From Azolla caroliniana (Eukaryota > Plantae > Polypodiophyta), in the NCBI GenBank assembly GCA_043228905.1, contig JBHGNT010000007.1, forward strand, positions 5,580,001 through 5,644,000: a DNA stretch of 64,000 nucleotides, written 5' to 3'. Below, in pieces: positions 4,131-63,400 of the stretch (position 1 is its first letter; the number at the start of each line of letters is the position of its first letter). A model generated the notes under the pieces. That model was not told where the DNA came from. It ran no database searches and saw nothing but the letters and a program-made list of their open reading frames with translations. The translations under genes and the position numbers were made by a program.

Positions 4131-4917
4131 TGTATTTCGTACACTACGTGAAAAAGTAAAAATAATTTAACCGATTTAATTACATATAAATAAATAAAAT
4201 AAGAATATCAAAATATTTATCACATGCATAGGGCAGGATTCGAAGCCTATACCTCCACATAGCCAAACCTCAACTTTACCATTATGCTACCTTATCTTTA
4301 GTATTTTATAAATAGATTTAATAACTATAAGTTCTTTATTTGCGCCTACCTTTATTAAAAGGTAAATCATGTATTTTTAGAGTGCGTGAATATTTTATAG
4401 AAAAACGCAAGCAACTAAAAAGTGACTCATGCACATCTAGCGTGCATGAGCACTATATTTAGCAAATAAAAGCAAGGATTAGAAAAGCATCACATGCACA
4501 TTTAGTGTGCATGAACATATTAGAAAAAAAAAAAAAACATGTAGCTATGCTTAGTCTCTCCCATCACTACATAAGGATGGGGAGCACAATGTAATAGGTG
4601 TGTGAAATATTTGGAAATTGGATATATTTCCGAAAACACCAACCGATTAATATAATCGTGGGATTCACGAAAATAATATAATCTATACTTGTGGGATTCA
4701 CAAGTTTCTTATATCTTTCTTTCAATCTAAATACATATTCTTATCTAAATATTGATTAATTGAATACAATACACTCGTGGGATTCACAAAATTTCTATCT
4801 CTCTTTCTAATAATCTATTCATTACTAGCCTCATCTCATATTCTTCTTTCTCCTAGTCCAAAACCTCAGTGGTTCCCACCCGACTCACGCAACGATCCGG
4901 AGCCGAAAGGCACGACA
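4124..4917 (+). repeat. B LTR2 (internal, degenerate 5' terminus)
   Basis: Near-identical to LTR3; ends CACGACA then PBS; start reads TTTGTAG instead of TGTCGTAG. Confidence 0.88.
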
Positions 4918-5553
4918 CAGTTGGTGAACCCGACGTGAAGACGGGTGGCAAGGAGATGGAGAATCAACAAGAGGCGATGAACATGATGATGATGATGGTT
5001 GAGCGGATGCAACAAGAACAACGCGCGATGACGGAGATGAAGGCGGCAGTAGAGCGGCTTGTGCGACGAAATGGGGAATTCAACGGAAATGATGTGTCAC
5101 GCTATCTACGTGACTACAAAGGGGAGATGATGCGATGTGGGATACCGGAAGGATTGCAAGTGATATCCTTCAGTCGGGTAGCCACGGATGAGTTACAAGA
5201 AAGAATCTACAAGATACGGCAACAAAATCCAACATGGGGGTCCTTTGAAGAAGCTTTACGAGAGGCATATGACTACGAGAGATCGAAGGGACGAGATCGA
5301 TGCGAGTTTGATGAATGGGTGGCATCGGAGAAGACCCACCGAAGTGCAACACAAGCATTCCTAGAGTTCGAGCATCGTCTTGCTTGACTCTCGGAGCGGG
5401 AACAACGATTGGTGGGAGAGGATAAAGTCCTAATGTTCGTAAAATCGATCGATCGAAAAGAAAGGATGGACATCGGGATCGAACTCGAAGACGATGAAGG
5501 TACGAATGGTCTTACCGAAGATTGGGCCGAAGTCCAAAGGGTATGCCGGAGAC

Positions 5554-5686
5554 TGTCAGGAACTCTATTAAGGCAGAGAAGGAATTGGTACTAAAAGAAG
5601 GATTAGTACTATTGTTGGGGAATAGTACTAAGACAGAGAAGGATTAGTACTATGAGAGGTATCGAACTTTGAGAGAAGGAATGAGT

Positions 5687-5728
<42 letters not shown>

Positions 5729-6018
5729 TGATGCGAAAGATATATGTATTATATGACGGAAGATATACAACAGTAGTTAGAAGGCTTAAGACTGGCGTTG
5801 AACCGATTTGGTTCGAACTAATGCCTTGCGCCTCCTTTTATAGTGTCTTCAGGAATACTCCTGAAGTTTCTAGAATGTTCCAGAGAAATCTGGAATATAC
5901 ATCAATTTCCCAATAAAACCTAAATGAAAATAATATCCTTCAAATTACAATTCATATCCTAATGGTAAAGTCTCGACCCGTGTAACAAAAGGTTATGGGT
6001 TCGAGTCTAGTTATGACA
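5554..6018 (-). repeat. C 3' LTR
   Basis: TGTCA...TGACA; copy of 10852-11310. Confidence 0.96.
5847..5896 (-). promoter_or_regulatory. Heat-shock-element array upstream of the LTR TATA box
   Basis: Ten trimers in exact 5-bp phase TTC-GAA-cTC-GAA-TTC-GAA-TTC-GAg-aTC-GAA; TATAAAA on minus strand at ~5836-5842. Confidence 0.75.
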
Positions 6019-9000
6019 CTATCCCCCCTTTAAAACGACGAGTTTCACGAGTCGTTTTGGATTGAGGACCCGGTTTCTCGGGATATCGTCGATGGAAGTC
6101 TTCTAGAAGAGCACGAGCATTGGTCACATTCTCGATCGGTTCCCAAGTACGCTCGCTGGGACTATATCCTAGCCAATCGACTAGATAGTAGAGCTTGTTG
6201 CGAACAATCTTGGAATCGAGGATGGCAGCGACCTCATACTCAGGTCCATCTTCGAGCTCGATAGGAGGTGGAGGTTGTATAGTACGTCCTGGGATAGTGC
6301 TCTCGTGATAGGGTTCGAGGAGAGAACTATGAAACACCGGATGTATCCGAAGTTGCGGAGGTAGCTCGAGACGAAAAGCGACATCATTAATCTTCCCGAT
6401 AATACGGAAAGGACCTAATCGCCGATAATCCAACTTCTCACATGGGCGAGTAGTCTTGATGTGTCGTCGTAGCAGCCACACCCGATCTCCAATGTTAAAA
6501 CTGGATGGAAGTCGATGACGATCTGCGTAGTCCTTGTGTGATTGTTGAGCTTGCTGGAGTTGAGTAGATAAATCCGCTTGTATCTTGCGTAACCGCTCCA
6601 AACGATCCTCCGCGCAAGGATTTGTGGACACTTCTGGGGTTTCAAGGACACACCACCGGGGATGATATCCCGTATAAGCGTAGAATGGCGTGACTTTAGT
6701 TGATGCGTGGATAGCGTTATTATAGGCAAATTCGGCGAACTGAAGAATATCTGCCCAGTCATTCTGATGATAGTTGAGAAAGCACCGCAGATACTGCTCC
6801 AGTGTTTGATTTGTTCGTTCGGCTTGACCGTCGGTTTGTGGGTGGTAGCCGGAGGAGAGGTTACAAGTGACCTTCAGCATTTTAAAAAGGTGCTTCCAGA
6901 ATTTTGACACAAACTGGGGTCCACGATCGCTGATGATATTATCAGGGAGTCCATGATGCCGACATACTTCCCGCATGACAATTTCGGCGGTGTCTTCACT
7001 AGATATTTCTTTAGTACATGGTAAGAAATGAGCCATCTTCGTATATCGATCCACCACTGTGAGAATCGCACTGAATCCCTTAGAGACTGGAAGATCTGTA
7101 ATGAAGTCAAGAGCAATGGATTGCCATGGCTTGCTTGGAATTGGTAATGGTTCTAATAAACCATATGGATGATGTCTTGGCATTTTCGCTCTGCAGCATG
7201 TATCGCAAGTCCGAACAAAATCTTCGACAAATTGTCGCATACGGGGCCACCAGAATGATCGTTGTACTAAATCTAATGTTTTAGTACTACCAAAATGTCC
7301 TGCTGTATATGTGTCATGGCAGTTTTGTACTACTCGAAGGCGGCAAGAACCATTAGGAACATACAAAAGTTCTTTAAAGAAGAGTAATCCATCACAGTAT
7401 TTGAATTGCCGATAATCCGTACCTGGTGATTGTGATTGTGAACATGACGCTCGAGAGGGGTCAATTTGTGCTAGTATAGCTTGGGCGAAAGCGTCAGTCT
7501 TCAAGTCCTCACGTATAGTATTGGTAATGTCGGAATCCACGGGCATGTCAAAGACCTGTGCTGCTTGCAGTCGTGCTGGACCCAAGATTACTTGCTTCTG
7601 GTTATCGAAAGCTGGCTCACCGGGACGTGGTGTTAGATACGAACGCCGTGATAATGCATCTGCCTTCCCTTGGTGTTTCCCCGGACGATATGTAATTTTG
7701 AAGTCGAAGCGTGTGAGGAAGTGGGCCCACCGAGCTTGACGTCGATTCAGTACACGAGCATCTTGAAAGTGGGCAAGGTTCTTGTGGTCACTGAATACAG
7801 TGACCTGATGAGGAGATCCCTCCAGGAAATGCCTCCATTGCATAAAAGAATCAACTATTGCTAATAGCTCTTTATCATGAATTTCGTAGTTGATTTCGGC
7901 GGCGTCAAACTTACGGGAGTGGAAAGCCACAGGATGTAGCTTCTCGTCGTTACCCTGTTGTGACAGAATGCTCCCCAATGCGAAATCCGATGCGTCAGCT
8001 TCGATAATGAATGGTTTTTCCGGATCCACATGACCTAAAATTGGAGCTGATGTAAACGCCTTCTTAAGACTCTCGAAAGCCATGTCCGTCTCTTTAGACC
8101 AAATGAATGATTGTCCCTTTCTGGTGAGCTGTGTGAGAGGCAGCACAATTTTTGAGTAATTTTGTATGAACTTCCGGTAGAAATTTGCAAAGCCTAGGAA
8201 GCATTGCACATCCCGCACCGAACGCGGAGTGTGCCATTCTATCACCGTTTTGACCTTGGCTGGGTCCATAGATATGCCTTCTGAGGAGATGACATAGCCG
8301 AGAAACTCCACTTGGTTGCACCCGAAACTACATTTCTCTAACTTTGCATACAGACCATGTTCTCGAAGTCGTTTTAGTACTAATAGTACATGAGAATCAT
8401 GTTCTTCTTGGGTCTTTGAATAAACCAGTAGATCATCCAAATAGATGATCAAAAAATCATCCAAGAGATCTCGAAATATATCATTCGCCATGTGCTGGAA
8501 GACTGCCGGCGCATTAGTAAGTCCAAACGGCATGACCGTATACTCGAAGTGCCCATATCTGGTGCGAAACGCGGTCTTCCATTCATCTCCTGGTCGGATC
8601 CGTACGAGGTTATAGGCTCCTCGTAAGTCGATCTTCGTGAAGAACCTGGCACCGTTGATCCGTTCTAAAAGACTTGAGATAAGGGGAAGAGCATACCTAT
8701 TTCTTACTGTGACCTTATTCAAGCCACGGTAATCTACAACGAGTCGAAGCGAGCCATCTTTTTTCTTGACGAAGAAAATGGGTGCGCCGGCTGGAGATTT
8801 CGAATGCCGAATGAAACCGTTCTCCAAATTCTCCTCTATATAGGCTCGAAGGACTTCTAGCTCGGTTGGTGACAAATTGTAGATCGGCCCCCATGGCGGC
8901 TCTTTTCCCGGTTGTAAGTCGATGGCGCAGTCGTACGGCCGATGATGAGGAAGTGTGTTGGCTTGTACTTTATCGAACACATCAGCATACTGACGATACT

Positions 9001-9568
9001 TCTCGGGAAGTTGAACGGTGGACTCCTCTTTGGTGGTGCTGGAGGGTTGTACTGATATTGCAAAGAGAAACATTTCCTCCTTGCGCCCTTCCTCACGCAA
9101 CTGACGTAGCGAAATGGTTGCAACCTTCTGGGTAGATCCTTGGGTTTGTCGCAACCGGATTTCCCTTGTCCTCCAATCTATGTCTGGGTCATGTAACTCG
9201 AACCATGGTAATCCTAAAACTATGGGATGTTCTGGAATACTAATAATATTAAATGATACTACACATGTTAAGTTATTTAGGACAATATTAACGGGTTCCG
9301 ACTCTTCTATGATATTACCAGAAGCAATGGGACGACCATCAATGACTACTACTGAGGCTGGACATGGGAGCTTTCTGAGAGATATCTGATGAGCTCGGGC
9401 AAAATTCCTATCCATGAAGCAAGAATTAGCTCCGGAATCTAGAAGGGCTAAGGTATGTACTGGAGGGGTACTTTTAGTACTAACTGCTACTTGGGCTACG
9501 AACACATCACTAACTTGCTTAGAGGGAATGGAACCACTAATGGGCTGCACAGATCTAGGGCTGTCCAA
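6011..9568 (-). CDS. pol: Pol polyprotein PR-RT-RH-INT-chromodomain
   Basis: 1185 aa; LLDSGA, YLDD, EADASD, integrase core, GPF and chromodomain EYEVAAILD...YLVDWLGY...TWEP; stop lies inside the 3' LTR. Confidence 0.97.
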   Translation of the reverse strand: MDSPRSVQPISGSIPSKQVSDVFVAQVAVSTKSTPPVHTLALLDSGANSCFMDRNFARAHQISLRKLPCPASVVVIDGRPIASGNIIEESEPVNIVLNNLTCVVSFNIISIPEHPIVLGLPWFELHDPDIDWRTREIRLRQTQGSTQKVATISLRQLREEGRKEEMFLFAISVQPSSTTKEESTVQLPEKYRQYADVFDKVQANTLPHHRPYDCAIDLQPGKEPPWGPIYNLSPTELEVLRAYIEENLENGFIRHSKSPAGAPIFFVKKKDGSLRLVVDYRGLNKVTVRNRYALPLISSLLERINGARFFTKIDLRGAYNLVRIRPGDEWKTAFRTRYGHFEYTVMPFGLTNAPAVFQHMANDIFRDLLDDFLIIYLDDLLVYSKTQEEHDSHVLLVLKRLREHGLYAKLEKCSFGCNQVEFLGYVISSEGISMDPAKVKTVIEWHTPRSVRDVQCFLGFANFYRKFIQNYSKIVLPLTQLTRKGQSFIWSKETDMAFESLKKAFTSAPILGHVDPEKPFIIEADASDFALGSILSQQGNDEKLHPVAFHSRKFDAAEINYEIHDKELLAIVDSFMQWRHFLEGSPHQVTVFSDHKNLAHFQDARVLNRRQARWAHFLTRFDFKITYRPGKHQGKADALSRRSYLTPRPGEPAFDNQKQVILGPARLQAAQVFDMPVDSDITNTIREDLKTDAFAQAILAQIDPSRASCSQSQSPGTDYRQFKYCDGLLFFKELLYVPNGSCRLRVVQNCHDTYTAGHFGSTKTLDLVQRSFWWPRMRQFVEDFVRTCDTCCRAKMPRHHPYGLLEPLPIPSKPWQSIALDFITDLPVSKGFSAILTVVDRYTKMAHFLPCTKEISSEDTAEIVMREVCRHHGLPDNIISDRGPQFVSKFWKHLFKMLKVTCNLSSGYHPQTDGQAERTNQTLEQYLRCFLNYHQNDWADILQFAEFAYNNAIHASTKVTPFYAYTGYHPRWCVLETPEVSTNPCAEDRLERLRKIQADLSTQLQQAQQSHKDYADRHRLPSSFNIGDRVWLLRRHIKTTRPCEKLDYRRLGPFRIIGKINDVAFRLELPPQLRIHPVFHSSLLEPYHESTIPGRTIQPPPPIELEDGPEYEVAAILDSKIVRNKLYYLVDWLGYSPSERTWEPIENVTNARALLEDFHRRYPEKPGPQSKTTRETRRFKGGIVS

Positions 9569-9594
9569 CCAAACGGCTCCTATTTTGGCTGGAC

Positions 9595-10764
9595 TTAGTC
9601 GTTTAACTCTTCTTCTAATTGGCTAAGGACATCAAATTTGTTTGCGAGATTCGGACTATTAGTACTATTAGGACTATTATGACTATGAGGATTATCAGAG
9701 ATTCCTACTGAAATAGACTCGGGTTTAGTATAGTCAGAACTAACAATGACTTGGTTTACCTGCCTTCTTGGTCTATGGGGACAGTTTATCGCGATATGCC
9801 CTGGTCCACCGCAATAAAGGCATAATCGGTTTGTTCGGCGTCGTTGCTTTTCCTCCTCCGATAGCGGCCCACGACGACGTGTAGTGTCAATTTCCATTGG
9901 AGTTGGAGTACTTACTGGAGGCGCATTATGTGACTCCCTTTGAAAAGGTTTCGCTACCACTGAGGCATAGGTAGGCTCGGATCTTGCCCTCGGCATCTGA
10001 AATTGTCGTTCCGAACGTCGCTCGAAGAGGCGGTTGTCACATCTGACCGCTCGACTGATTGCTTCTGTTAATGATTTTGGCTCTTCAGGGAAAGTCAAGA
10101 GTAAATCCTTGACATCGTTGCGTAGACCATAGCGGAACTGCTCCATCAATGCTTGATCATCCCAGGGGATATCGGCGGCGAGTAGGCGGAAATCTGCAGC
10201 ATATGCGGAGGCTGGACGGTCACCTTGGCGTAATCGCCGGATTTTGTTGATTGTAGTCCTTATGCTGTCAGTATCTCCAAAACATGCTTTAAACTCACTT
10301 ATGAATTCTTCAAAATTATTTAGTACTGGAGATTCCTTTTCTAGTAGCGGAGCGAACCATGCTAATGCTGAGCCATTTAACAACGTGCCTACTAAACCCA
10401 CTCGTGATGCATCGGTGGGATATCGGGACGGATGCATTTGAATAACTAACCGTACCTGGTTAAGAAACCCTCTAAACTGCGATCGCGTTCCATCGAACTT
10501 CGTGGGAAGGCCAATCTTGGGTTCTTTATGAATCCCTTGTGCTCCGTGCCCTTGTTGTTGCATTGCTACGATGGTTGCTTCGAGTTGTTGCACGCGTAAC
10601 GCAAGTTCCCCATGCTGTTGTTGCGTTTGCTGCTTTTCTAAGGAAATTTGCTGAAGATCCCCCAACAAGCGTTGATTTTCTTGTTCCAAAGCATGAAACT
10701 TCTCTTTCAAGCATTGAAATTCCGAGAAAACGGATTGATACTCTTCAGCGCTAACGGTGGCCAT
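9595..10764 (-). CDS. gag: Gag (coiled coil, capsid, CCHC knuckle)
   Basis: 389 aa; PTKFDG, LRQG, PTPMEID, CLYCGGPGHIAINC. Confidence 0.96.
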   Translation of the reverse strand: MATVSAEEYQSVFSEFQCLKEKFHALEQENQRLLGDLQQISLEKQQTQQQHGELALRVQQLEATIVAMQQQGHGAQGIHKEPKIGLPTKFDGTRSQFRGFLNQVRLVIQMHPSRYPTDASRVGLVGTLLNGSALAWFAPLLEKESPVLNNFEEFISEFKACFGDTDSIRTTINKIRRLRQGDRPASAYAADFRLLAADIPWDDQALMEQFRYGLRNDVKDLLLTFPEEPKSLTEAISRAVRCDNRLFERRSERQFQMPRARSEPTYASVVAKPFQRESHNAPPVSTPTPMEIDTTRRRGPLSEEEKQRRRTNRLCLYCGGPGHIAINCPHRPRRQVNQVIVSSDYTKPESISVGISDNPHSHNSPNSTNSPNLANKFDVLSQLEEELND

Positions 10765-10851
10765 GGGATGAAGGAAAAGGGAAATAAGAGACTAGTAGGA
10801 AAGGAGGGAGACAGAAGGAAGAGGGAGACTAGTAGTCAAATCGGTTCAAAC

Positions 10852-10984
10852 TGTCAGGAACTCTATTAAGGCAGAGAAGGAATTGGTACTAAAAGAAGGA
10901 TTAGTACTATTGTTGGGGAATAGTACTAAGACAGAGAAGGATTAGTACTATGAGAGGTATCGAACTTTGAGAGAAGGAATGAGT

Positions 10985-11020
<36 letters not shown>

Positions 11021-11310
11021 TGATGCGAAAGATATATGTATTATATGACGGAAGATATACAACAGTAGTTAGAAGGCTTAAGACTGGCGTTGAACCGATT
11101 TGGTTCGAACTAATGCCTTGCGCCTCCTTTTATAGTGTCTTCAGGAATACTCCTGAAGTTTCTAGAATGTTCCAGAGAAATCTGGAATATACATCAATTT
11201 CCCAATAAAACCTAAATGAAAATAATATCCTTCAAATTACAATTCATATCCTAATGGTAAAGTCTCGACCCGTGTAACAAAAGGTTATGGGTTCGAGTCT
11301 AGTTATGACA
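10852..11310 (-). repeat. C 5' LTR
   Basis: Copy of 5554-6018, adjacent to the PBS-position sequence 10837-10849. Confidence 0.96.
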
Positions 11311-12754
11311 GAGACATGATGAGAGGAAGATGAGAATCTTGTCAACGACATGGCCGATGAAGGATGGTCGATTGAAGACAAATGATGGAGCCGATATGAA
11401 GGCCGAAATACAACATGATGGTGCGACGGAAGAGGGTGTCAAACAAGCTACCCTATTGTCTTGCGAAAGAACAATGACGAAGGATAAGGCCGATAACCCA
11501 AGTGTAGAAGAAGATTTCAGAATACAAGTGTCCGAAACATCGGGTGAAAAAGGGGTAAGCATAATTGATGCAGTGAAAGAGAGCAAGGAGGACTTGATTG
11601 AGGAGGTCACCACGAAAGATGACATCGAATCGAAGGTGGCTATGGACGAATCAACGACGGATGGCCATATCGAGACTTCCCCACCACTGATTCTAGAGAC
11701 TCCGGCGGTTGCGTTCGAAAGGCAACGTGAGACCGAAGAGACGGAAGGTGGCGGAGAGAAATCAAAGGTTGAAGCTGATGCGTATGACGGAGAGATAGCC
11801 GAGAATATGGCTATGGGTGAAACAACGGAGGATGATAATACCGAGGATTCCTACCCACTAATTCTAGAGACTTCGGCGGTTGTGTCCGAGAACCAACGTG
11901 AGACCGGAGAGACGGGAGGTGGCAGCAAGAAAGGTAAAGTCGGAAGCCGGTTCGGATGGAAGGTGATCCGGACGGGATTCCGATCCGAAAGAAAGCCGAA
12001 CCGGGTAAAAGAGGATTCGACCGAAAGTCGACCCAAAAGAAAGCCGAACCGAAAGGAAGAAAATTCAGCCGAAAGACGACACAAACGAAAGCCGAACCGG
12101 GCAAATGAGGATTCAGCCGAAAGACGACCCGAAAGAAAGCCAACCCGAAAAGGGGTCGACTCGGTCAAAACCGATCGACCGAGTCTGACTTGGCCGAACG
12201 CGAATATGGATGGAAGCAGACCTAGCCGAAAGCCAATCGGACGAGACGGATCCGGAAAGAAGCTAATCCGACTCAATCGGAGGTTGGACCGGTCGAGGCT
12301 GGTGAAAACGAGGAAAAGAAAGCCAACCGAAACCGAAACCGATAGATCGAAACCGGGCCGGAAGGAGACCGACTCAATCGAAACCGAACAACCGATTCCG
12401 ATTCGGCCGAATACGAATCCGATCAGAAGCTGATCAAACCGAAAGTCGATCGGACGAGAGCGATCCGGAAAAAAGTCAAGGTTGATGAAGACAAGAAAGA
12501 GGCCAGTAAAAGACACTACCACGAATGACAAGGGCCAAGAATATGACGAGAGAGAACAAAGAATATGGTGGATCGGATGGCGACAATGGTTCGGGTGGAA
12601 AGAATTGGTCTACTCAAAATGGAGAGACAAAGTTGACATAGCGGGACAAATGGAGGATGAAGGGGAGACAACGAGCATCGGCAACTTCGGCACATACCGG
12701 AGGATGTGCGGGTTCGGAGGGGGCGAGTGTCGTAGTGTATTTCGTACACTACGT

Positions 12755-15700
12755 TGTCGTGAAGATTTTCGTCCATAGGCGGAAAACCGAGCGAAGCAAG
12801 CAAACCCGCGATGTGCAACGTTGCACATCAACATGTTGTATTTCTATTTATCGATAGTGATAAGTATGGTGCTAGAAATGCACCTTAGGATTTGTAAAGT
12901 GTAAAGGTGATGTGCTTTTGCGCGCACATCCACGTGAGAGAGAGAGAGATAGGTACGTGGTAGTTCGTGTAGAGGTGGGAGTTAAGACCCATCCTTCCCA
13001 CCTCCCCTAAAATCAAGGGAAATCTCCCCATTGATTGAAAGGGGATATTTTGTAGCACCTTTATGTAACGGTCTTCCCTCCTTGTGCTATAAAGGGAGAG
13101 GAAGAGCACCATTGTGGAGGTTGCCTATTTTGAGTGCGAAAGGTATACCACATAGGACGAGCGTTAGGTTTAGGGTTTCTTTTCTTCTTCGTCGGATTAG
13201 GGTTTCGGGTTTATCATAGTCGTTTGGTGCGGCCTACGCGGCCGCCATTTTGTAATCGGTTTTCGGTTCTAATATATCTTGTTGAGCATTTGGCCTCCAT
13301 CTTCCTCTTGTTCATTCTTTCTCTTCTTGTGCTAAGCTCCATTCCGAAGTCCTATTCCTTCTCCCCTTTTCCTTAGTCCAAGACCCCCGTGGTTCCGCCC
13401 TTCTCCACGCACGCGCGTAACAACGCGACATCTTTGGTGAACCCGACGTGAAGGGCGGCAAGGGAGAAAGAGATGGAAGAAGGCTTCGACTTCGAGGAGA
13501 TGATGACAAAGATCTTGATGGACGCCGGACGGAAGAGGGCGAGGCGAGAGTTCTTTCGTCGAGCGGCGGCCGCATCAAAGTACGAGGAGGTCAAGGAGCT
13601 CCAAGAAGCTCACGAATCGTGGGAGTCCTTTGAAGGGGCTCTAATGGAGGCATACGGGTGCGCGGAATCGGAGGTAAGAGGTCGGCGAGAGTTCGATCGG
13701 TGGGTGGCGTCGGCGAGGCGCCATCGGAGTGCAATGGAGGCATTCCGAGAGTTCGAGCGTCGTTTCTCTCAACTCTCGGAGTGGGAACGAAGATCGGTGG
13801 GGGCGGACAAAGTCCTCCTATTTTTGAAGACGGTCCATCATGAGGAGAGGATGGACATCATGTTCGAGCTTCAAGACGATTATGGAGCGCATGGTCTCAC
13901 CGAGGAGCTGCCCGAAGTGGAATGGGTGTGTCGGCAACATGAGGCGAGGCGGTCGGCCACAACACGGCCCGCGAGCGGGGGAGAAGAGAGAGCGACGACC
14001 GACTACGCCATGCCGCCGGACGAGAGCTCATCGCGAACCGGTTTGGAGGGGCCCGACCTACAAGCGCTAATACGGGAGGCGTGCGGGCTCGTAATGGCGA
14101 AAATCGAAGCCGAAGAATGGCTTATTGCGGGGTCGGGCCTGAGCGGATCGGAGGACGCGGAGGAAGGAGCTTCCTCACACATGGAGGACGGGGCCTATGC
14201 GGAGGCCGAAAGAGAATGGTACATCGGTACCACGGGAGAGGGTGCGGAGCGAGCCGCCCTCTCGACATGGGGGAAAAGAACGACCGAGGATGAGGTCGGG
14301 GACGGTGAGGCGGCGATCGCCGATTCGAGTGGACATGGCGGATTCGGGACATGGTGGCCCGAATCATCGAGTACGGAGGAGACAAGCGGCGGTACCGCAA
14401 CCTTCCACGCACCGGTTCAAGAGACCCCGGCGGCCGGCCCGAGTGCCCACGTGAGACCGAGGGAAAAGAACGGTGGCGGCGACAAGGCGGGCAACCGAGA
14501 CAACGGTAAGGAGACCGCGGAAGAGGCGGCGGCAAGCATAACCGATGCTTGCATATACGGAGGCGGGGTAGCCACGGACAACGACGTCCGAGCGGAGGTG
14601 GCTACGGACATTACATCGACGAGCGGCGGTCCCGCGCCCTTACACGCGTCATTCCTAGAGATCACGGCGGCCGGCCCGAGTGCCCGCGTAAGACCTATGG
14701 TGAAAGGCGGTGGCGGTGGCAAGGCGGGCGACCACGACGTCGACACGAGAGAAGGTGCGGAGCAAGCGACCGTCTCATCTCGGGGAAAAAGAACGGCCAT
14801 GGACGAGGCCGATATCTACGGAGCGATGGACGCCACTTCGAGAGTGGGCGGAAGTTTCGGGACGCGGTTGCCCGAAACGTTCTACGAGGATTTCGCGAGC
14901 ATACTCGAGGCTTGCGAAATGGAGGAGGAAGACGAAACGAGCGATGGTGTCGCGACCTTCCACACACTGGCCCTAGAGGCTTCGGCGGTCGGCCCGAGTG
15001 CCGGCACGAGACCTAGAACGACGGGCGGTGGCGGCGGCAAGGCGGGCCACCGAAACGACGACGACATGGGAGAGGGTGCGGAGCGAGCAACCCTCTCGTC
15101 TTGCGGCGAATGGACGGCCAAGGATGAGGCCGGTGACTACGAAGCGGAGAGCGCCACTTCGAAAGTGGGCGGAAGATTCGGGGCACGGCGGCCCAAAACA
15201 TCGAGCGGAGAGGAGGCGAGCGGTGGTGCCGCGACCTTCCACACACCGGCCCTAGAGGCTTCGGCGGTCGGCCCGAGAGCCGGCGAGAGGCCTGGAGTGA
15301 CGGACGGTGGCGGCGGCGAGGCGGGCAAACGAGATGACGCGGAGAACGGCGAAGAAGAGGTGGTGGCAAGCATACTAGAGGCTTGCGGAATCGGAGATGG
15401 GGGAGCCACGAATAACGACGTCCGAACGAAAGCGGCTACGGAGACAACAAACGGCGGTGCCGGGTCCTTACCCACACCAATCCTAGAGGCTCCAATGGCC
15501 GGCCCGAGTGCCGGCATGAGGCTTAGCGCGACGGGAGGTGACGGCGGCAAGGCGGGCAACGGAAACGAGAAGGAAGATTGGAGCGGACGGAGGCAAGACC
15601 CCTTGACACCGGGGCCGGAGACTACGACGGTTGCACTCGGAAGCCAACATAAGACCGTAGAGAAGGGCGGTGGCCGTGAGGAGGCGTGGCCCGGAGAGAG

Positions 15701-17681
15701 CACATGCGAAGAAGGGGATACGGGGCCCGGAATGGGCGTATACGGAGAGTCCGACGGAGAGGATCGGAGCGGTATCGAGGAGCGAGTCGGGAACCAACCC
15801 AACCGGAAGGCGAGCCGGTCGGTAATCCGACCCGACCGGGAGGCGAAGCGGCACGATTGGAGGCCGAGGTGTACGAGTCGCAACACACGGTGGGAGCCAG
15901 TGAGCGCGAGAAGGAGGCCAAGCGGGCGCAAGGACAAGGACTCGGTGGGAGACCGAGAGCGGAAGGAACCCTCCACACCTATGCTTAACACTTCGGCGGT
16001 TGCGGATCAACGGAAGACCGAGGAGATGGCGGGTGGCGGCGAGGAGTTGGAGACCGATGCGGGGGACGGGTCTACGGTGGAAGCGCGACACGAGACGCAT
16101 GCAATACGGCCGGTGGAGGGCCAAGAGACGAGCACGCATACGGCGAACGGGCGACAACGAGTGACCGACGACGACGGTCGGGTCAAGCCTTCGAGAGGCA
16201 AGCGCGGGATGAAAGAGGGCGCGGGTCGAGACGAAGCGATGATGAGAGCCACGAAGGGCCCCGACACGGAGGTCGGGAAAGGAAGGTACCTTTCCAAAGG
16301 GGTACGCGAAAAGGAGCGGGATACGAAACGTGCAATACGGCCGCATGAGGGCCAAGCAACGAGTACGGGAATGATGGTATGCTCTACGGCGAAAGAGCAC
16401 GGAAGGCGAAGGGAAGGCGGAAGATGCGTGATGGGGGCGTCGAAGGACCGAAGCACGAGCACGCATTCGGGGGAGAGCATCGACATACGGGGAAAGCCTA
16501 CGGAAGGCAATCGCGGAGCGGAGAGAGTCGGCACGCCGAGGTGTGCGGCACGGGAAAGGCGGAATCCGGCGTGCAGCCGGAGAGATCGGGAGAGCATCCG
16601 GAGGCTATACGAGGCGGACAAAAGAAGAGCAGCCGGGTCGGCAACGGCGTTCGGGAGGACCGATCGGGGAAGAAAGCGCGGGCATCGGAAGCGGCGGTCC
16701 GGATGTAGACGGTGGTTCGAGGAATCACGGTGGACGTGGCGGATCGGGTGGAGGCAACGACTCGGCGAACGTCGTCAAGTGTGGCGGATCGGATGGAGCC
16801 GACGGTTCGAGACCATTCGGCGGAGATGGTGGGCCAGAAGGCGACGGTGGTTCGTGTGGACGGGGTGGACTTGCTCGAAGTGGAAGACGAAGCCGGGCAA
16901 GCCCACGAGGTTGTCAAGGGCTCGGTTGGCCGCCTTGGCCGAAAATCTCGCGTTTTGTTCCCCTTTTGGCACATACCGGTGGATGTGCGGTTAGGTGGGG
17001 GCGGATGTCGTGAAGATTTTCGTCCATAGGCGGAAAACCGAGCGAAGCAAGCAAACCCGCGATGTGCAACGTTGCACATCAACATGTTGTATTTCTATTT
17101 ATCGATAGTGATAAGTATGGTGCTAGAAATGCACCTTAGGATTTGTAAAGTGTAAAGGTGATGTGCTTTTGCGCGCACATCCACGTGAGAGAGAGAGAGA
17201 TAGGTACGTGGTAGTTCGTGTAGAGGTGGGAGTTAAGACCCATCCTTCCCACCTCCCCTAAAATCAAGGGAAATCTCCCCATTGATTGAAAGGGGATATT
17301 TTGTAGCACCTTTATGTAACGGTCTTCCCTCCTTGTGCTATAAAGGGAGAGGAAGAGCACCATTGTGGAGGTTGCCTATTTTGAGTGCGAAAGGTATACC
17401 ACATAGGACGAGCGTTAGGTTTAGGGTTTCTTTTCTTCTTCGTCGGATTAGGGTTTCGGGTTTATCATAGTCGTTTGGTGCGGCCTACGCGGCCGCCATT
17501 TTGTAATCGGTTTTCGGTTCTAATATATCTTGTTGAGCATTTGGCCTCCATCTTCCTCTTGTTCATTCTTTCTCTTCTTGTGCTAAGCTCCATTCCGAAG
17601 TCCTATTCCTTCTCCCCTTTTCCTTAGTCCAAGACCCCCGTGGTTCCGCCCTTCTCCACGCACGCGCGTAACAACGCGACA
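12755..17681 (+). mobile_element. Element D: young gag-only non-autonomous LTR retrotransposon
   Basis: 676-bp LTRs (12755-13430, 17006-17681) with no difference seen by eye; TSD ACGT; tRNA-Trp PBS 13435-13452; one ORF and no pol motifs. Confidence 0.93.
13473..16994 (+). CDS. 1173-aa protein: Gag capsid-like N-terminus, acidic G/A-rich repeats, R-rich region, W/R-rich C-terminus
   Basis: Uninterrupted ORF filling PBS to PPT; WESFEGAL...AFREFERRF...DKVLLFLK...GLTEE aligns by eye with Gag of E and B. Confidence 0.8.
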   Translation: MEEGFDFEEMMTKILMDAGRKRARREFFRRAAAASKYEEVKELQEAHESWESFEGALMEAYGCAESEVRGRREFDRWVASARRHRSAMEAFREFERRFSQLSEWERRSVGADKVLLFLKTVHHEERMDIMFELQDDYGAHGLTEELPEVEWVCRQHEARRSATTRPASGGEERATTDYAMPPDESSSRTGLEGPDLQALIREACGLVMAKIEAEEWLIAGSGLSGSEDAEEGASSHMEDGAYAEAEREWYIGTTGEGAERAALSTWGKRTTEDEVGDGEAAIADSSGHGGFGTWWPESSSTEETSGGTATFHAPVQETPAAGPSAHVRPREKNGGGDKAGNRDNGKETAEEAAASITDACIYGGGVATDNDVRAEVATDITSTSGGPAPLHASFLEITAAGPSARVRPMVKGGGGGKAGDHDVDTREGAEQATVSSRGKRTAMDEADIYGAMDATSRVGGSFGTRLPETFYEDFASILEACEMEEEDETSDGVATFHTLALEASAVGPSAGTRPRTTGGGGGKAGHRNDDDMGEGAERATLSSCGEWTAKDEAGDYEAESATSKVGGRFGARRPKTSSGEEASGGAATFHTPALEASAVGPRAGERPGVTDGGGGEAGKRDDAENGEEEVVASILEACGIGDGGATNNDVRTKAATETTNGGAGSLPTPILEAPMAGPSAGMRLSATGGDGGKAGNGNEKEDWSGRRQDPLTPGPETTTVALGSQHKTVEKGGGREEAWPGESTCEEGDTGPGMGVYGESDGEDRSGIEERVGNQPNRKASRSVIRPDREAKRHDWRPRCTSRNTRWEPVSARRRPSGRKDKDSVGDRERKEPSTPMLNTSAVADQRKTEEMAGGGEELETDAGDGSTVEARHETHAIRPVEGQETSTHTANGRQRVTDDDGRVKPSRGKRGMKEGAGRDEAMMRATKGPDTEVGKGRYLSKGVREKERDTKRAIRPHEGQATSTGMMVCSTAKEHGRRREGGRCVMGASKDRSTSTHSGESIDIRGKPTEGNRGAERVGTPRCAARERRNPACSRRDRESIRRLYEADKRRAAGSATAFGRTDRGRKRGHRKRRSGCRRWFEESRWTWRIGWRQRLGERRQVWRIGWSRRFETIRRRWWARRRRWFVWTGWTCSKWKTKPGKPTRLSRARLAALAENLAFCSPFGTYRWMCG

Positions 17682-18471
17682 ACGTGAAAAAGTAAAAATA
17701 ATATAACCGATTTAATTACATATAAATAAATAAAATAAGAATATCAAAATATTTATCACATGCATAGGGCAAGATTCAAACCCTATACCTCCACGTAGCC
17801 AAACCTCAACTTTACCATTATGCTACCTTATCTTTACTATTTTATAAATAATAAATTTAATAACTATAAGTGCTTTATTTGCACCTACCTTTATTAAAAG
17901 GTAAATCATGCATTTTTAGAGTGTGTGAATATTTTATAGAAAAAACGCAAGCAACTAAAAAGTGATTCATGCACATCTAGCGTGCATGAGCACTATATTT
18001 AGCAAATAAAAGCAAGGATTAGAAAAGCATCACATGCACATTTAGTGTGCATGAACATATTAGAAAAAAAAGCATGTAGCTATGCTTAGTCTCTCCCATC
18101 ACTACATAAGGATGGGGAGCACAATGTAATAGGTGTGTGAAATATTTGGAAATTGGATATATTTCCTAAAACACCAACCGATTAATATAATCGTGGGATT
18201 CACGAAAATAATATAATCTATACTTGTGGGATTCACAAGTTTCTTATATCTTTCTTTCAATCTAAATACATATTCTTGTCTAAATATTGATTAATCGAAT
18301 ACAATACACTCGTGGGATTCACGAAATTTCTATCTCTCTTTCTAATAATCTATTCATTACTAGCCTCATCTCATATTCTTCTTTCTCCTAGTCCAAAACC
18401 TCAGTGGTTCCCACCCGACTCACGCAACGATCCGGAGCCGAAAGGCACGACACATTTGGTGAACCCGACGT

Positions 18472-41659: not shown

Positions 41660-42071
41660 TGTCAGGAACAGTACTAAGACAGAGAAGGAATTAGTACTAA
41701 AAGAAGTATTAGTACTAAGAGAGGTGAAGAACTCTCGAGAGAAGGAAAGAGTGAGTGAGAGGGAGAGAGAGAGAGTGATGATAAGAAAAGATATATATTA
41801 TGTGAAGAAAATGTACAGTAGCTAGGAGGCTTAAGACTGACGTTGAATCGATTTGGTTCGAAATAATGCCTTGTGCCTCCTTTTATAGTGTTCTAAGGAA
41901 TACTCCTGAAGTTTCTAGAATGTTCCAGAGAAATCTAGAATATACATCAATTTTCTATAATAAAACATAAATGAAAATAATATTCTATGTATTACAATGT
42001 ATAGTCTAATGGTCAAGAGCTCGACCCATGTAGTATAAGGTCATGGGTTCGAGTCTTGCCATATCATGACA
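41660..42071 (-). repeat. Element A 5' LTR
   Basis: TGTCA...TGACA, diverged relative of the C LTRs. Confidence 0.92.
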
Positions 42072-44700: not shown

Positions 44701-44748
44701 GATAACTTCTAATTCTTGTAGTGATTAATCAGAGGTAATTAAAGGCAG

Positions 44749-44935: not shown

Positions 44936-45062
44936 TTAAGAGGTAATTAATTGGAGATGGAATCAGCTCTGATTAAAATGACGATGAAGGGTTTAATGTG
45001 ACTTAAAATGTGATTAATTTAAATGTTAATATGACCGTTTTTTTGGCCGAATGTGATTAACA

Positions 45063-45510: not shown

Positions 45511-45699
45511 ATTGGTTTAAAACCGCAAATCAATTCGTTTACACTTCAGATTGGTTTAAAACAACAAACCAACTTGAGATTGGTTTAAAACAACAAATCA
45601 ACTTGAGATAAACACTTGTTTCCAACAACTTTTCCATTAATAAGTACTCGCAATATACAATGAGTCGATTCTCGCTATACAAAATTTGTGTGGATTCCA

Positions 45700-49362: not shown

Positions 49363-49374
49363 TCTTCTTCTTCT

Positions 49375-49417
<43 letters not shown>
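49363..49417. repeat. (CTT)n(CT)n microsatellite
   Basis: Directly visible. Confidence 0.95.
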
Positions 49418-49421
<4 letters not shown>

Positions 49422-49566
49422 AACACCATGTTTGTAATATAGGGTCCCAATGAGAATCTACCTTCATTAGTTCCTTATATCTCATTCTTCGACATAAAAA
49501 TTATGTCAACCTCATCTTTGACATAAAAATCTCCCTCTATCTCATTCTTTCTTTTGACATGTAGAC

Positions 49567-51261: not shown

Positions 51262-51328
<67 letters not shown>

Positions 51329-52673: not shown

Positions 52674-55600
52674 TGTCAGAACCAAGGATAAAAGATACAG
52701 TGATGGAAGACGGATATTAGAGAACACGAGCAGAAAGGAACGAAATACTAAGAGAAGAATGGATGTATAAGATAGAGAAAGAAAGAGAATGGATACAAGA
52801 TATGTAATGAGAGCTAAAGACTGGTGTTGATTCGAATTGATTTGAGAATACATGTATGCCCTTATTTATAGGTTCCTATAGAATAACATAGAGATTTCTA
52901 GAATGTTCTAGAATGTTCTAGACCTAGAATGCTCTAGGACATTCTAGAACATTCTAGAATAATCTAGAGGTTTTACAATAATCAATGTAATATAAGAAGT
53001 AGCTTTTATTGTTTTATATAACAATAAGCTATCTTAATGGTTGAGGTTTTCAAGTATGGATTACAAGGTTCGAGGTTCAAGTCTAGGTGAAGCCATAATG
53101 GTCATGTGTTCATGACAATATGCCTCCTTCGAGAACGTTGAGTGCAAGTCGGCGTTAACATTGTTGGGCCAGGCTTGTTTGGTTTGGATAGTGACGATGG
53201 AAGTCGTTGATTAGAGCTTCAGCATTACAAACGTTATCAATGGGTTCCCAAGTGTGATCACTCGGAGGATAGCCAAGCCAATCAACTAGATAATAAAGCT
53301 TATTGCGCACAATCTTAGAATCGAGAATAGCAACTACCTCGTATTCGGGGCCGTCCACAAGTTGTACAGAAGGCGGTGGTGGCACGACACGATTAGGAAT
53401 TAAAGAGGTGCGGCAAGGTTCCAAAAGAGAGCTATGAAAGACAGGGTGAAGCCGCATATGTGCAGGAAGGTTAAGACGAAATGTTGCATCATTAATCTGC
53501 GCGTTGATAGTCAAGCTTAGTACACGGTCGGGTAGTCTTGATGTGACGACGAAGCAACCATACACGGTCACCAACCTTAAACGGAGACTTAAGACGATGT
53601 CGATCGGCATTGGTCTCATGGTGTGCTTGCGCTTTCTGAAGATGTGACGATAACTCGAATTGGATTTGTTGTAGTCGGTGGAGGTGATGCGCCTCCACCG
53701 ACTACAACAAATCCAGTTCGAGTTAAGACGATGTCGATCGGCATTGGTCTTATGGTGTGCTTGCGCTTTCTGAAGATGTGACGATAACTCGAACTAGATT
53801 TGTTGTAGTCGGTGGAGGTGATGCGCCTCCACCAACCTTAAACGGAGACTTAAGTCGATGTCGATCGGCATTGGTCTTATGGTGTGCTTGCGCTTTCTGA
53901 AGATGTGACGATAACTTGAACTGGATTTGTTGTAGTCGGTGGAGGTTTCGTGACACCTCAGGAAGATCCAGTATACACCATCGAGGGTGGTTGCCAGTGT
54001 AGGCAAAGAAAGGTGTAACTTTGGTAGAAGAGTGGACCGTGTTGTTGTATGCAAACTTGGCAAGATGTAAAATATTACTCCAATCATCTTGTTGATAACT
54101 AATGAAACATCGAAGATATTGCTCGAGCGTTTGATTTGTGCGCTCTGTTTGTCCGTCAGTTTGTGGATGATAAGCCGAAGAGAGTTTGCAAGAGATTTTG
54201 AGGCCCGCCCATAGGTGCTTCCAAAAGTGTGAGATAAATTGAGGACCTCGATCGCTAATAATATCATTCGGGAGACCATGATGGCGAAACACTTCACGCA
54301 TAATGAGATCTACAGTTTCTTCACTATTGATGGTCTTTACACATGTTACAAAATGTGCCATCTTGGTTAACCGATCCACTACTGTTAAAATAGTATCAAA
54401 GCCTTTGGAAGGTGGCAGATCTGTAATGAAATCCATAGAAATAGACTGCCATGGCTTGTTGGGAGGGGGTAATGGTTGTAGTAAGCCATAAGGGTGATGT
54501 CGAGGTATTTTGGCGCGACAGCAAGTGTCACAAGTGCGAACATAATCTTCGACAAATTTTTGCAAGTGAGGCCACCAAAACGAACGTTTCACCAGCTCAA
54601 TGGTCTTGGAAATACCAAAATGTCCAGCCATGGGGGCATCATGACAATGTTCCAACACTTGAAGTCGGGGTGATCCGTCGGGGACGTAAAGGAGATTCTT
54701 GTAGAAGAGTAAGCCATCTTGCCACTTGAAGTCCTGATAATGTTGAGATGACCCTGGCAATGTGGAGCAAGATGGACGACTTGAACCACAGTGGGCTAAG
54801 ACATCCTTAGCGAAATCATTTGAATGAAGTTGTTGCCAAATAGTCTCAAGAAGGGTAGAATCAAGTGGTGTGGCATAAATTGTTGTTACATGTAGCTTTG
54901 ATGGCCAGAGGAGAATTTGCTTTTGATTGTCAAAGGTCAGATCTCCAGGTCGAAGTGCTAGATACGAACGCCGAGACAAAGCATCTGCTTTCCCTTGTTG
55001 TTTTCCGGGGCGAAAAATGATCTTGAAATCGAAACGCGTTAGAAATTGGGCCCACCGAGCTTGGCGTCTATTTAATACTTGAGCAGTTTGAAAATATGTG
55101 AGATTTTTGTGATCACTATAAATGATAATCTGATGAGGTGATCCTTCTAGAAAATGACGCCATTGCTCGAATGAGTCGACCACAACTAGTAACTCCTTGT
55201 CATGCACCTCATAGTTTATCTCCGAAACAGTCAATTTTCTCGAGTGAAACGCGATTGGATGTGTCTGCCCGTCCTCGCCTGGTTGCGATAGGATACTCCC
55301 CAATGCAAAGTCTGATGCATATGCCTCAATAGTAAATGGCTTTTCAGGATCAATATGTGCTAGGATGGGTGTTGATGTGAATGCCTCTTTTAGCTGCGTA
55401 AAAGCCTTGTCCGCTTCGATACTCCAAAAAAATTCTTGATTTTTCTTGCTGAGTTGAGTAAGGGGCAACACAATGCTTGAATAATTATGTATGAATTTGC
55501 GATAGAAGTTCGCAAATCTGAGGAAACACTGGACATCCCGAACTGAGCATGGGGGTTTCCATTCCAATATTGTTTGGACTTTTGCCGGGTCCATGAAAAC

Positions 55601-60400: not shown

Positions 60401-63400
60401 GTGCGACTTCGAGTGTGCGGAGTTCTCGGCCCGGACGAGGAAATCAGCGGAGCCGTGGAGGCGGTCTCCTTCGACGACACCTTGGGAATGCTGAGGAAGG
60501 TAGCCGGAGAAGACCTTAACGAAGACCGGACGATACCGGTATGTTCCGAAGAGATGTACGAAGTCATCGCGGACTTCAGTCAGGGGCTCGGGTCGGATCG
60601 GACGGCCCGAGTTAGCACGAAGTACAAGACTGTGGACCGGAAGGTAAGGCCAGTCGCGGCACCCTTACCGGAGGGCAGCGAGTCCCGAATCAGAGGGGTT
60701 GCGTCGGACCCCAGTTTACGAGATCCGGTCTGCATAGGACACACCTTCACCGACGGGACACTCCATGAGCTCAAAATCGGTGGGGGCGGGTTCCTACTGC
60801 CGGCGGAGGAAGACCAGTTTCGGAGAATCCTCGGAAGGCACGGTAAAGCCTTCGCATTCTCACCGGGAGAGATCGGGTGCGTAGACCCGACAATCGTGGA
60901 GCCGATGGTGATATTCACGGTACCGCATGTGCCGTGGAATCTCAAGCCGATTCCAGTACCGAGAGCTCACATCCCGAAGTTGATGGAGCTATTGAGGCAG
61001 AAAGTCGATATGGGCATTCTCGAACCGTCAAGTGCCCCATACTCGAACCGATGGTTTACCGTACCAAAGAAAAACGGAACATTGCGCTTCATTCAAGACC
61101 TGCAGCCGGTCAATAGAGTGACCATTCGGAACGCAGGAATCGGACCGACCATAGACGAGTTCGCGGAGGCCTTCACCGGAAGGTCGATCTATTCGGTCGG
61201 TGATCTGTACTCGGGGTACGACCAGTTCCAGCTAGCCGTGGAGAGCAGAGACATTATGACGATGCGAACTCCCCTCGGCCTAGTGCGAATGTGTACCCTG
61301 CCACAAGGAGGGACCAACTCGGTGGCCCACATGGTGAATGCAATGAACAAGGTACTGAGGGATTGCATCCCGGACATCACCATGCCATTTTTAGACGACA
61401 TCCCGATCAAGGGGTGCCCGGTGGAAGAGAAGGACGCAACACTCGGACCGGACGGATGCCGGCGATTCGTGGCAACACACATCGACGACTGCGAGAAGGT
61501 GCTACAAAGGCTAGAGGATGCGAGGCTCACCTTCTCCGGTGTCGTGACGTGGCTCGCCTAGAAGCGTAGCGTTGCGCACACAAAGGATAACGTGAAAGTG
61601 AGGAAGGAATCACTGGGATTATGGACGGAAGAGACGAAAGAGTAGAGATGGAGTGAATAGAGATCAATAAGATATGACAAAATAGGATTTTTAAGGAATA
61701 TAAGATAAGACAAGATAAGATATAAAATAATATATGAGAAAGTGTATGAAATTTATAATCATTTTCATGAAAGAGTTACAAAATGATTGTACACGTCGTT
61801 GATCCTCTGAACTTTGTCTTGCAAGGTAATCGCTCTTCTCTTTCTTGATCGTAGACCACTACAATCTTCACTTCAATATTTTGATGAAGATAAGGCTCGA
61901 ACCGCCTCCCTCTTGTTGAGAGTTGACCACCACGACCGCCAAGCTAGAGCTCCACCTTTTTCTTGACTTCTTCCTTTCTTTCTCTATTTTATGGTATCTC
62001 TTATGTAATATATATTTGATTGATATCTCGTACACATCCCCCTTTGATCTTCTCTTTCACCATTTAAATAGGTGCCCCCATGCATATGATGCATTGGAGG
62101 GTACAAGTCATGCATGTGATGCATGATAAACATCTCGCTCATTTGACCTTTTATGTATGAAACAATATATGCAATAAGAATAAACATGAAAATATAATCT
62201 TAAAGACAAAGGGCCTAGCCTAATGGTAGGTGTGTCAACTTTGGTGTATGAGGTTGTGGGTTCGCGTCTCAAAATGCTATTGAATACAACATACAACTTT
62301 ATTTAATCCTTTATGTAATATAAAGTATATATAAAGTATGCTTTATTTTATGTATATTACTAGTATAGAGTAAATGGTAAGATTTGAGAGTCATAGGGTG
62401 GGGTTATTGGTTCAAGTCCTCTCTTGTTCGTGTAATATAATATATTTATCTATATATATATATTATTTTTCTTTACATATTTATAATATTATCATATGTG
62501 TTGTTAATATTATCTTTATATATAAAACATTATCAAATGTTATTTTAGTTACGTATTTATCTTATTGTAGACTTTTAATGTGAAGCTTTCGTACTTCACG
62601 ACACCGGGGAGAAATCGGCCTTCGGGCAATCAGAAATCCTGGTGGTCGGACACCTATGTGGACCATATGGCCGGAAGCCGTCTTCGGCAAAGGTAGAAGC
62701 CATCTCCGCGATGAAGACCGACTGTAGCTCGGTTACGGAAGTTCAGAGGTTCTTGGGGGCGTGCGCATTCTACCACATATGGATCCCGCATTACGCCCAC
62801 GTTGCGGAGCCGCTATACGGGTTGCTGAAGAAAGGGCGAAAATTCGAGTGGCGAGACGAGCACACGGAGTCGGTCCGGAAGCTGAAGGAAGCTCTTGTGG
62901 CAGCACCGGCGCTCCGGAAGGCTGTCTACGGGAAGGGTACCCCGGTATACATAACAGTGGATACGAGTCCGATCGGGATCGGATGGGTCGTCAACCAAGA
63001 AGACGAGGACGGCATTCGGTTCCCGATCCGATTCGGCGCGAAGGTCCTCAGTGAGCGACAGCGAGGGTACGCCCAGGTTAAACGCGAACTCTGGGGTATC
63101 GTTTCGGCAGTGAAGGCCGACAAAGACTACCTGATCGGGACAGAAGTGAGTATCGAGGCGGATTGCCTGCCAATTCTCGGCATGGTGTCCGGATGCGCGA
63201 CACCGGACCTGGCGATGCTCAGGTGGATAGCGTACATCAAGTCCCTAGACCCGGAAATACGACACATTTCCGGAAAGGACAACGCCATGGCCGACATGCT
63301 TTCGAGGGCGAGGTTTGATGACGAGGGCGGCATGGTTTCGGAGGACGAAGAAGTCGGCGTGGACTTCTTCGAGGCAGCGTACGTGACGACCGATGGGACG

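Follow-up and report, generated by a model that had tools for sequence, protein, structure and literature searches.

A probable tRNA-derived type-2 Pol III promoter module in the outer U3 of LTR retrotransposons from Azolla caroliniana

A 64,000-nucleotide stretch of Azolla caroliniana DNA (contig JBHGNT010000007.1 of assembly GCA_043228905.1, positions 5,580,001 to 5,644,000 of the forward strand; called 'the window' below and numbered from its first letter) consists of a nest of retrotransposons with long terminal repeats (LTRs) plus a Mutator-like fragment. Several of the LTRs contain, in their U3 part, pairs of short words resembling the A and B boxes of tRNA genes, which an earlier note on this DNA had read as a shared insulator or RNA polymerase III (Pol III) module. 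The locus raises the question of whether these pairs are a maintained module, and what such a module would do in elements having an RNA polymerase II (Pol II) TATA box of their own. As judged by the conservation described below, the outer U3 likely holds a reduced, tRNA-derived type-2 Pol III promoter, composed of an A box, a motif at tRNA positions 44-47 and a B box. The spacing and the positions contacted by TFIIIC are conserved across a clade of Tcn1-type chromoviruses, and the same arrangement was recovered in a second lineage, so that the earlier reading was partly upheld, in the form of a probably selected type-2 module.

Box pairs in the outer U3

The window was scanned with textbook A- and B-box patterns not fitted to the data, offsets of 38-50 nt being permitted, and the counts were compared with 40 block-wise (local) dinucleotide shuffles at two stringencies. 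At the tighter setting 6 box pairs were found against 0.1 expected (shuffle maximum 1), and at the looser setting 13 against 1.6 (shuffle maximum 4); the strictest pairs (4 of 4) had an offset of 43-44 nt. The pairs reported earlier were all present, including the B box of LTR B1 at 1318-1327, and their excess over chance was confirmed. Three copies came in addition to these, one in the 5' LTR of C, one in a third B LTR (B3) and one, in sense orientation, in K. Each A-to-B stretch (called a cassette) was also scored with a profile (matrix) trained only on Tcn1-type cassettes, for which the shuffle null reached at most 14.3 bits (coordinates and scores in Table 1). The spacing of 43-44 nt given in the earlier note held for the cassettes of elements C, A and I and for K1 and B2 and was less apt for K2, in which the A-box core fits better at 42 (21.1 bits, compared with 13.7 bits, inside the null range, at offset 43). 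A third tRNA motif, AGGT-like and corresponding to tRNA positions 44-47, was present in all U3 copies.

All the U3 copies of the module were antisense and lay in the outer U3, with the LTR edge on one side and the Pol II TATA box on the other. Its antisense placement near the outer U3 edge, reported for A, B, C and I, was borne out, and K, as oriented by its TATA box and terminus, is arranged likewise. The sole sense stretch, K3, lies about 90 nt behind the probable transcription start of K, downstream of its TATA box, and has a perfect B box, with A14 missing. A worn box-like stretch, also sense, occurs at 24240-24290 in the 5' leader of element F and scored below 11 bits in the profile scan. 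When scored as tRNAs, a check proposed in the earlier note, the cassettes failed: neither ARAGORN nor Rfam called a tRNA on any of them or elsewhere in the window (0 and 0 genes, respectively), and ARAGORN called none on the cassettes of 60 related loci.

Conservation in relatives and in a second lineage

Relatives of element C were found in metagenome contigs by alignment of the pol C-terminus, and the best 80 of 331 confirmed loci were used, of which 12 with less than 140 nt downstream were set aside, so that 68 loci remained in which the LTR sequence reached 140 nt or more. An AGGT motif and a B box were found antisense in the first part of the LTR in 55 of these 68 (55 of the 60 loci belonging to one accession series), and when the A box was left free over offsets of 30-60 nt, its best position was 43 or 44 in 53 of the 55. 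This gap is within the tRNA range, the two real tRNA genes present in one locus (L041) having an offset of 45. Sense-strand and coding-region controls scored at most 28, and carriers mostly 31-43. Two of the five negatives in the carrier-rich series (L056 and L073) contained worn candidates at offset 44, and decay of the cassette was seen in L034, L046 and L073. Apart from the two real tRNAs, no match of at least 14 bits was found outside U3 in 189 kb of loci. These two genes (Asn and Thr; L041, 552-906) face each other tail to tail and lie directly upstream of a Tcn1-type fragment that is truncated. The pol ends of carriers were down to 57-60% identical to that of C. In a tree made by a quick method from 168 columns (L050, L058 and L069 left out), whose root is unsure and which cannot count origins, the carrier label clustered (0 of 500 shuffles as low), and most non-carriers fell on one branch (SH-aLRT 91, not starred), which also holds carrier L059. 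Viral contigs gave no match to the chromodomain end or to the primer-site pattern, and two further candidates from a scan of genome contigs (L081 and L082) were rejected as chance bacterial matches with neither LTR nor cassette.

Information content was computed from 22 non-redundant cores (less than 80% identical) and was high in three blocks, at tRNA positions 14-20 (1.39 bits), 43-48 (1.41) and 52-61 (1.47), and low at 26-42, the anticodon arm (0.45), and in the flanks (0.35-0.47). The earlier statement that the sequence between the boxes is not conserved accordingly stands for most of the spacer, which is free, and fails for AGGT at 44-47, which is as conserved as the boxes. Over 48 distinct cores, the B-box consensus GTTCRANYC was followed at G53 in 47, T54 in 47, T55 in 48, C56 in 42, R57 in 48, A58 in 48 and C61 in 40, and, of the A-box letters, T8 was retained in 41, A14 in 46, G18 in 45 and G19 in 45, but G10 in only 12; T47 was invariant, as were T55 and A58. 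Positions 56-57 read CG in 24 cores, CA in 18 and TG in 6, so the B-box CpG decays mostly to the tolerated form (CA) and less to the damaging one (TG). A lone T in mid-spacer, at position 35, was kept in 44 of the 48 Tcn1-type cores.

Rates of change were compared in 12 pairs of related families. Changed sites made up 12 of 120 in the B box, 9 of 72 in the A core and 13 of 72 at 43-48 (34 of 264 in total), as against 82 of 273 in the spacer, 281 of 1058 in the inner U3 and 47 of 144 in the outer U3, that is, 10-18% of sites in the boxes and 27-33% in spacer and flanks (Fisher test, about 1e-6; A core against spacer, p 0.002). The A-B distance was constant among loci in which the distance from the LTR start to the B box varied from 21 to 73 nt where measured and that from the A box to the TATA box was mostly 112-171 nt. 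Among the 40 of 95 family C variant rows that are listed, none falls in the B box or A core, an observation of little weight.

The Tcn1-only profile also recovered B2, B3 and K1, at 33.6-35.4 bits. Between the two lineages the spacers are 0.31-0.35 identical, about background, because of which common origin or transfer and convergence are indistinguishable. The description of the carriers as unrelated families was partly right: the module carriers are, on the features given below, two distant lineages and not four or five, A and C being one family and I a relative. None of the 80 loci has a B- or K-family LTR, and family B was compared with Logan contigs of four runs. The G53 change in B2 is private (consensus base in more than 99% of depth), no A-box variant reaches 4% of depth, and in a second B subfamily, as seen in loose contig ends, the A box is unchanged and the spacer, equal in length, differs in sequence. 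The C56T variant, however, accounts for 25-43% of contig depth, compared with 12-23% for the tolerated G57A, and shows no purge; the spacer CpG in B has the same strand bias, which points to decay. C56 may be decaying in family B, with no sign of selection on it in the contig depths.

Carrier elements and their surroundings

Element C, on the minus strand, is 5.8 kb long; its gag and pol are open, its chromodomain retains all three aromatic residues, and its LTRs are 98.7% identical. Its pol crosses the polypurine tract and stops within the 3' LTR (6011-6030), and many relatives end likewise. A and C belong to one family (LTRs 82% identical, pol 88-91%). Complementarity of 12-13 nt between the bases following the 5' LTR and an LTR stretch about 33 nt behind the TATA box, indicative of self-priming, was found in C and in 14 of 15 relative loci with the junction found (L004, L009-L013, L015, L016, L019, L023, L033, L040, L043 and L045), and both sides change together among families. 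The same complementarity is visible by eye in the SM-Tcn1 record. Within LTR C a second B-box-like word (5809-5820) lies beside the self-priming partner as part of a palindrome. Runs in public archives containing element C include leaf and plant metagenomes. The aromatic-cage chromodomain, the self-priming and the 5-bp target duplication are features of Tcn1 chromoviruses (PMC6317226, PMC2864245); PMC6317226 describes Tcn1 elements as self-priming, and PMC2864245 reports having found no evidence of it. C, A and I are accordingly classed as probable Tcn1-type elements, a label that rests on the chromodomain and self-priming and on resemblance to the SM-Tcn1 record.

Family B occupies 1210-18453 as a tandem array of gag-only units sharing LTRs, into which C and D are inserted; its primer site we take to be that of tRNA-Trp. 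B and E share 30% identity in gag; the pol of E lacks a chromodomain and is 24-25% identical to the pol of C and I, and named relatives of E occur in the liverwort Riccia. K, a solo LTR, has the same terminus as D and E, and its target duplication (CCGG) and that of D (ACGT) are of the 4-bp NCGN type preferred as a target by Phygy elements (PMC6317226, PMC2864245). B and K may form a lineage like that of Phygy, a non-chromovirus gypsy group with a non-Met tRNA primer; K, with no internal sequence, is assigned to it provisionally by its terminus and duplication. A short hairpin is present at the start of several LTRs. A degraded Mutator-like element spans 42073-49560, with a Mutator-like transposase (MULE) domain at 43138-43710 and a 32-bp tandem array at 44717-44966.

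Table 1. Cassettes and carrier features in the window (offset, distance from the first A-box to the first B-box coordinate; bits, profile score)
Feature	Coordinates	Strand	Remarks
Cassette, 3' LTR of C	5955..6007	+ (antisense to C)	A box starting at 5955, AGGT inside 5989-5994, B box at 5998-6007; offset 5955/5998, 43 nt; 41.7 bits
Cassette, 5' LTR of C	11247..11299	+	Boxes 11247/11290; box-pair scan and profile
Cassette, LTR A (older C-family copy)	42002..42055	+	Boxes 42002/42046, 44 nt; box-pair scan and profile
Cassette, 3' LTR of I	53030..53083	+	Boxes 53030/53074, 44 nt; box-pair scan and profile
Cassette K1, solo LTR K	62216..62268	+ (antisense)	Boxes 62216/62259, 43 nt; 35.4 bits
Cassette K2, weaker second copy in K	62366..62418	+	Boxes 62366/62409
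Cassette-like stretch K3 in K	61894..61946	- (sense to K)	Boxes 61946/61903; 26.1 bits; single copy
Cassette, LTR B1	1318..1370	-	B box 1327-1318 and AGGT intact; 24.5 bits
Cassette, LTR B2	4237..4289	- (antisense)	Boxes 4289/4246, 43 nt; 33.6 bits; private change at G53
Cassette, LTR B3	17773..17825	-	Boxes 17825/17782; 34.9 bits; carries C56T
3' LTR of C (Tcn1-type chromovirus)	5554..6018	-	Pol II TATA box at 5836-5843
pol of C	6011..9622	-	Protease, reverse transcriptase, RNase H, integrase, chromodomain; 1203 codons open
gag of C	9595..10791	-	Open frame in element C
Self-priming site of C	10837..10849	-	13 nt complementary to LTR stretch 33 nt behind TATA box
5' LTR of C	10852..11310	-	Element C flanked by 5-bp target duplication
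LTR A	41660..42071	-	5' LTR of older C-family copy, broken by nested insertions
3' LTR of I (Tcn1-type)	52674..53117	-	pol 71% identical (amino acids) to C
LTR B1	1210..1983	+	Gag-only tandem family B
LTR B2	4126..4918 (start approximate)	+	Gag-only tandem family B; followed by tRNA primer site
LTR B3	17682..18453	+	First 26 bases at 12729-12754, element D inserted between
Solo LTR K	61540..62603	-	4-bp CCGG target duplication; Phygy-like label and orientation probable

Possible functions and relation to known systems

Yeast TFIIIC contacts the equivalents of G53, C56 and C61 together with a single base upstream of the B box, and both binding and transcription respond to changes at +44 to +47 (PMC11724288); the C56G change lowers TFIIIC binding 370-fold (PMC11811891), and an A/B gap of 32 nt, equal to an offset of 43, is the commonest among yeast tRNA genes. 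The conserved letters are those that TFIIIC reads, which favours a selected, putative TFIIIC site, a reading that we hold to be quite probable. The A box, which is needed to place TFIIIB and start transcription, adds little to TFIIIC affinity and yet is kept, which suggests full assembly. A tRNA gene or tRNA-derived short interspersed element (SINE) could have been caught in U3 at a 3' LTR, from where copying would have brought it into both LTRs; host TFIIIC would dock on the boxes and recruit TFIIIB through the A box, TFIIIB being loaded in the AT-rich stretch towards the TATA box, with the module pointing outward. In the 5' LTR the module, between the flanking DNA and the element promoter, would shield that promoter from silent chromatin, and would be selected because copies in nested transposon arrays would remain transcribed. 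TFIIIC-bound tRNA genes and extra TFIIIC (ETC) sites are heterochromatin barriers in yeast (PMC12409998), and chromodomains of the aromatic-cage type are said to bind methylated H3K9 (PMC6317226). That the cassette serves the Pol II promoter of its element as a barrier, or as a mark of open chromatin, is, in our estimate, an evenly balanced proposition, and the wider picture, in which each of the two lineages would carry a portable TFIIIC-based shield and thousands of LTR copies would act as mobile chromatin barriers in a plant genome, is put forward only tentatively.

Several observations weigh against a selected TFIIIC site acting as a barrier. Only 12 of the 48 cores retain G10, which is among the four letters that define the A box in yeast, and the rate of change at positions 8-13 matches that of the spacer (24 of 72). 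Because cores were picked by motif, the conservation of AGGT and of the B box is overstated; the A core played no part in the picking. TFIIIC tolerates gaps of 31-93 nt, so that a fixed 43-44 is not demanded by TFIIIC alone. C56, at which family B has its unpurged C56T, is critical in yeast, and the A box of B1 is disrupted through a local duplication. The 55 positives are related by descent and all belong to the one accession series (15 assemblies), and none of the 8 JGI loci carries the cassette. Nor was it seen by eye in the SM-Tcn1 LTR of Selaginella or within the initial 400 bases of the RLG1 transcript of Physcomitrium, and LTRs D, E, F, G, H and J of the window (two of them relatives of B) gave no profile match; because of these absences, chromoviruses evidently thrive without the module. 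Finally, the literature searched contained no report of tRNA-gene barrier activity in plants.

An alternative that seems unlikely, though it is the strongest of those weighed, is a working Pol III promoter whose antisense RNA, running from the 3' LTR over the polypurine tract to the end of pol, or leaving the 5' LTR in the outward direction, would adjust copy number, silencing or reverse transcription. The A box, needed for the start of transcription, is conserved, the orientation is antisense in every U3 copy, and in Cassandra the Pol III promoter of the LTR does drive transcription (PMC10886601). Neither a terminator nor a cloverleaf is conserved, however: the first TTTT run is 1-86 nt past the B box, or absent within 200 nt in about half of 58 rows, and the acceptor, anticodon and T stems pair at the level of shuffled columns (p 0.14, 0.29 and 0.53, respectively), the D stem giving a weak signal (p 0.016, uncorrected). 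With no cloverleaf, terminator or fixed position, a tRNA product fits poorly. A general hairpin of spacer and B box was likewise rejected, since just 5 of the 22 families show a strong one (the best of the 14 registers tried gave p 0.008), and the antisense-RNA branch of the earlier note is thereby weakened. In LTR A, of the C/A family, spacer and B box do form an inverted repeat with a long hairpin (z -5.75). Such a spacer inverted repeat of the B-box region is found at 42010-42061 and in L001, L018, L024 and L030, and allows a hairpin on either strand. A poly(A) run of a related organism (X21) yielded 20 reads, all less than 95% alike and from both strands, which speak neither for nor against a transcript.

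It is improbable that the sense RNA of the U3 pairs with three loops (D, variable and T) of a host tRNA, bridging genome ends or aiding strand transfer in the manner of Ty3. The conserved blocks do correspond to single-stranded tRNA loops, G-U pairing would make a G-to-A change at 57 tolerable, a tRNA primer site is present in family B, and the antisense U3 placement is as in Ty3 (PMC5371799). Primer pairing nevertheless fits poorly because Tcn1-type elements self-prime, as observed in C and in nearly all loci with a junction, and the blocks, of only 4-7 nt, match no single tRNA. A58, which is methylated in mature tRNA and cannot pair, is invariant all the same, and no T-to-C wobble changes occur at 47, 54 or 55.

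Similarly low is the probability that a tRNA or SINE relic entered the U3 in the ancestor of each lineage and is decaying there without function. Many LTRs in Repbase hold tRNA-like pieces (Kojima, PMC10886601), and the loss in B1, C56T in many B copies, the three decayed loci and the absence from sister lineages are all as expected of a relic. The three blocks, on the other hand, change at roughly one third to one half the rate of the DNA that separates and adjoins them, the A-B spacing is fixed while neighbouring distances vary, the spacer of family B has turned over at constant length, and the cassette persists in carriers whose pol ends have diverged as far as noted above. Decay without function thus appears largely refuted for the Tcn1-type clade and remains for B and K. 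The marks of a tRNA-derived SINE insertion (body, tail and target duplication, with free copies outside LTRs) were not seen: no sequence is shared beyond the B box (identity 0.35), and the 189 kb of loci gave no free copy. That LTR-loaded TFIIIB serves as a landing pad, attracting tRNA-targeting retroelements or tethering the element's own integration near copies, is very improbable: in L041 a Tcn1 fragment does lie upstream of a real tRNA gene, at a distance of no more than about 250 nt, but none of the 8 cassette-bearing window LTRs is interrupted upstream of the A box, the only insertion (D in B3) falls some 90 nt downstream of the B box, and being a target brings the carrier no clear benefit.

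With a selected TFIIIC site as the preferred reading, the module can be set beside known systems. The Ty3 bipartite primer site has U3 sequence complementary to tRNA arms and matches the element's own primer tRNA (PMC5371799). The main carriers here differ in that they self-prime and keep only short invariant blocks. The U3 of HIV-1 also has a tRNA-like antisense stretch, which likewise matches the primer tRNA of the element. The tRNA genes and ETC sites of yeast provide TFIIIC-binding DNA that acts apart from an RNA product (PMC12409998), but at fixed host loci, and ETC sites combine an extended B box with a lack of TFIIIB, whereas the module keeps its A box and resides in mobile LTRs. For Tcn1 and Phygy elements, the passages searched of PMC6317226 and PMC2864245 mention no Pol III module.

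[quoted passage not shown] Cassandra and Ajax have a Pol III internal promoter in both LTRs with motifs conserved above the rest (PMC10886601); they differ in being non-autonomous, with a 5S-derived (type 1) promoter that transcribes the element itself. Helenus (TRIMp3) likewise has tRNA-derived LTR sequence, conserved around boxes A and B, with no working tRNA, for which an origin by SINE insertion into the LTR was proposed; its members are non-coding TRIMs of 311-1263 bp, with transcription from that promoter proposed, and it is argued that their autonomous partners have to rely on Pol II and would hardly have LTR sequence of this kind in common with them (PMC10886601). The passages searched give no orientation for the Helenus promoter. 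The present carriers have boxes A and B in the LTR as Helenus does, but they are not non-coding TRIMs of up to about 1.3 kb and the promoter is not placed to transcribe the element: they include 5.8-kb elements with open gag and pol and a Pol II TATA box, as well as the gag-bearing family B, the module pointing away from the element. K3, if real, would resemble the Helenus-type arrangement. The bare presence of tRNA-like pieces in LTRs is not new, because many Repbase LTRs hold them; what appears to be new is a clade-wide, outward-facing, selected module in coding elements, of which no description was found in the literature searched (mostly outside subscription papers and without Repbase). 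On sequence grounds the module is real and probably selected, and is a variant related to those of Helenus and Cassandra. The known LTR Pol III promoters belong to tiny non-coding elements copying themselves, and the present module, if the preferred reading is true, would instead be a cis-acting escape from silencing that borrows an essential host factor. At 53-54 bp and high copy number, with natural intact, mutated and missing versions in one genome, it lends itself to a direct test of TFIIIC barriers in plants.

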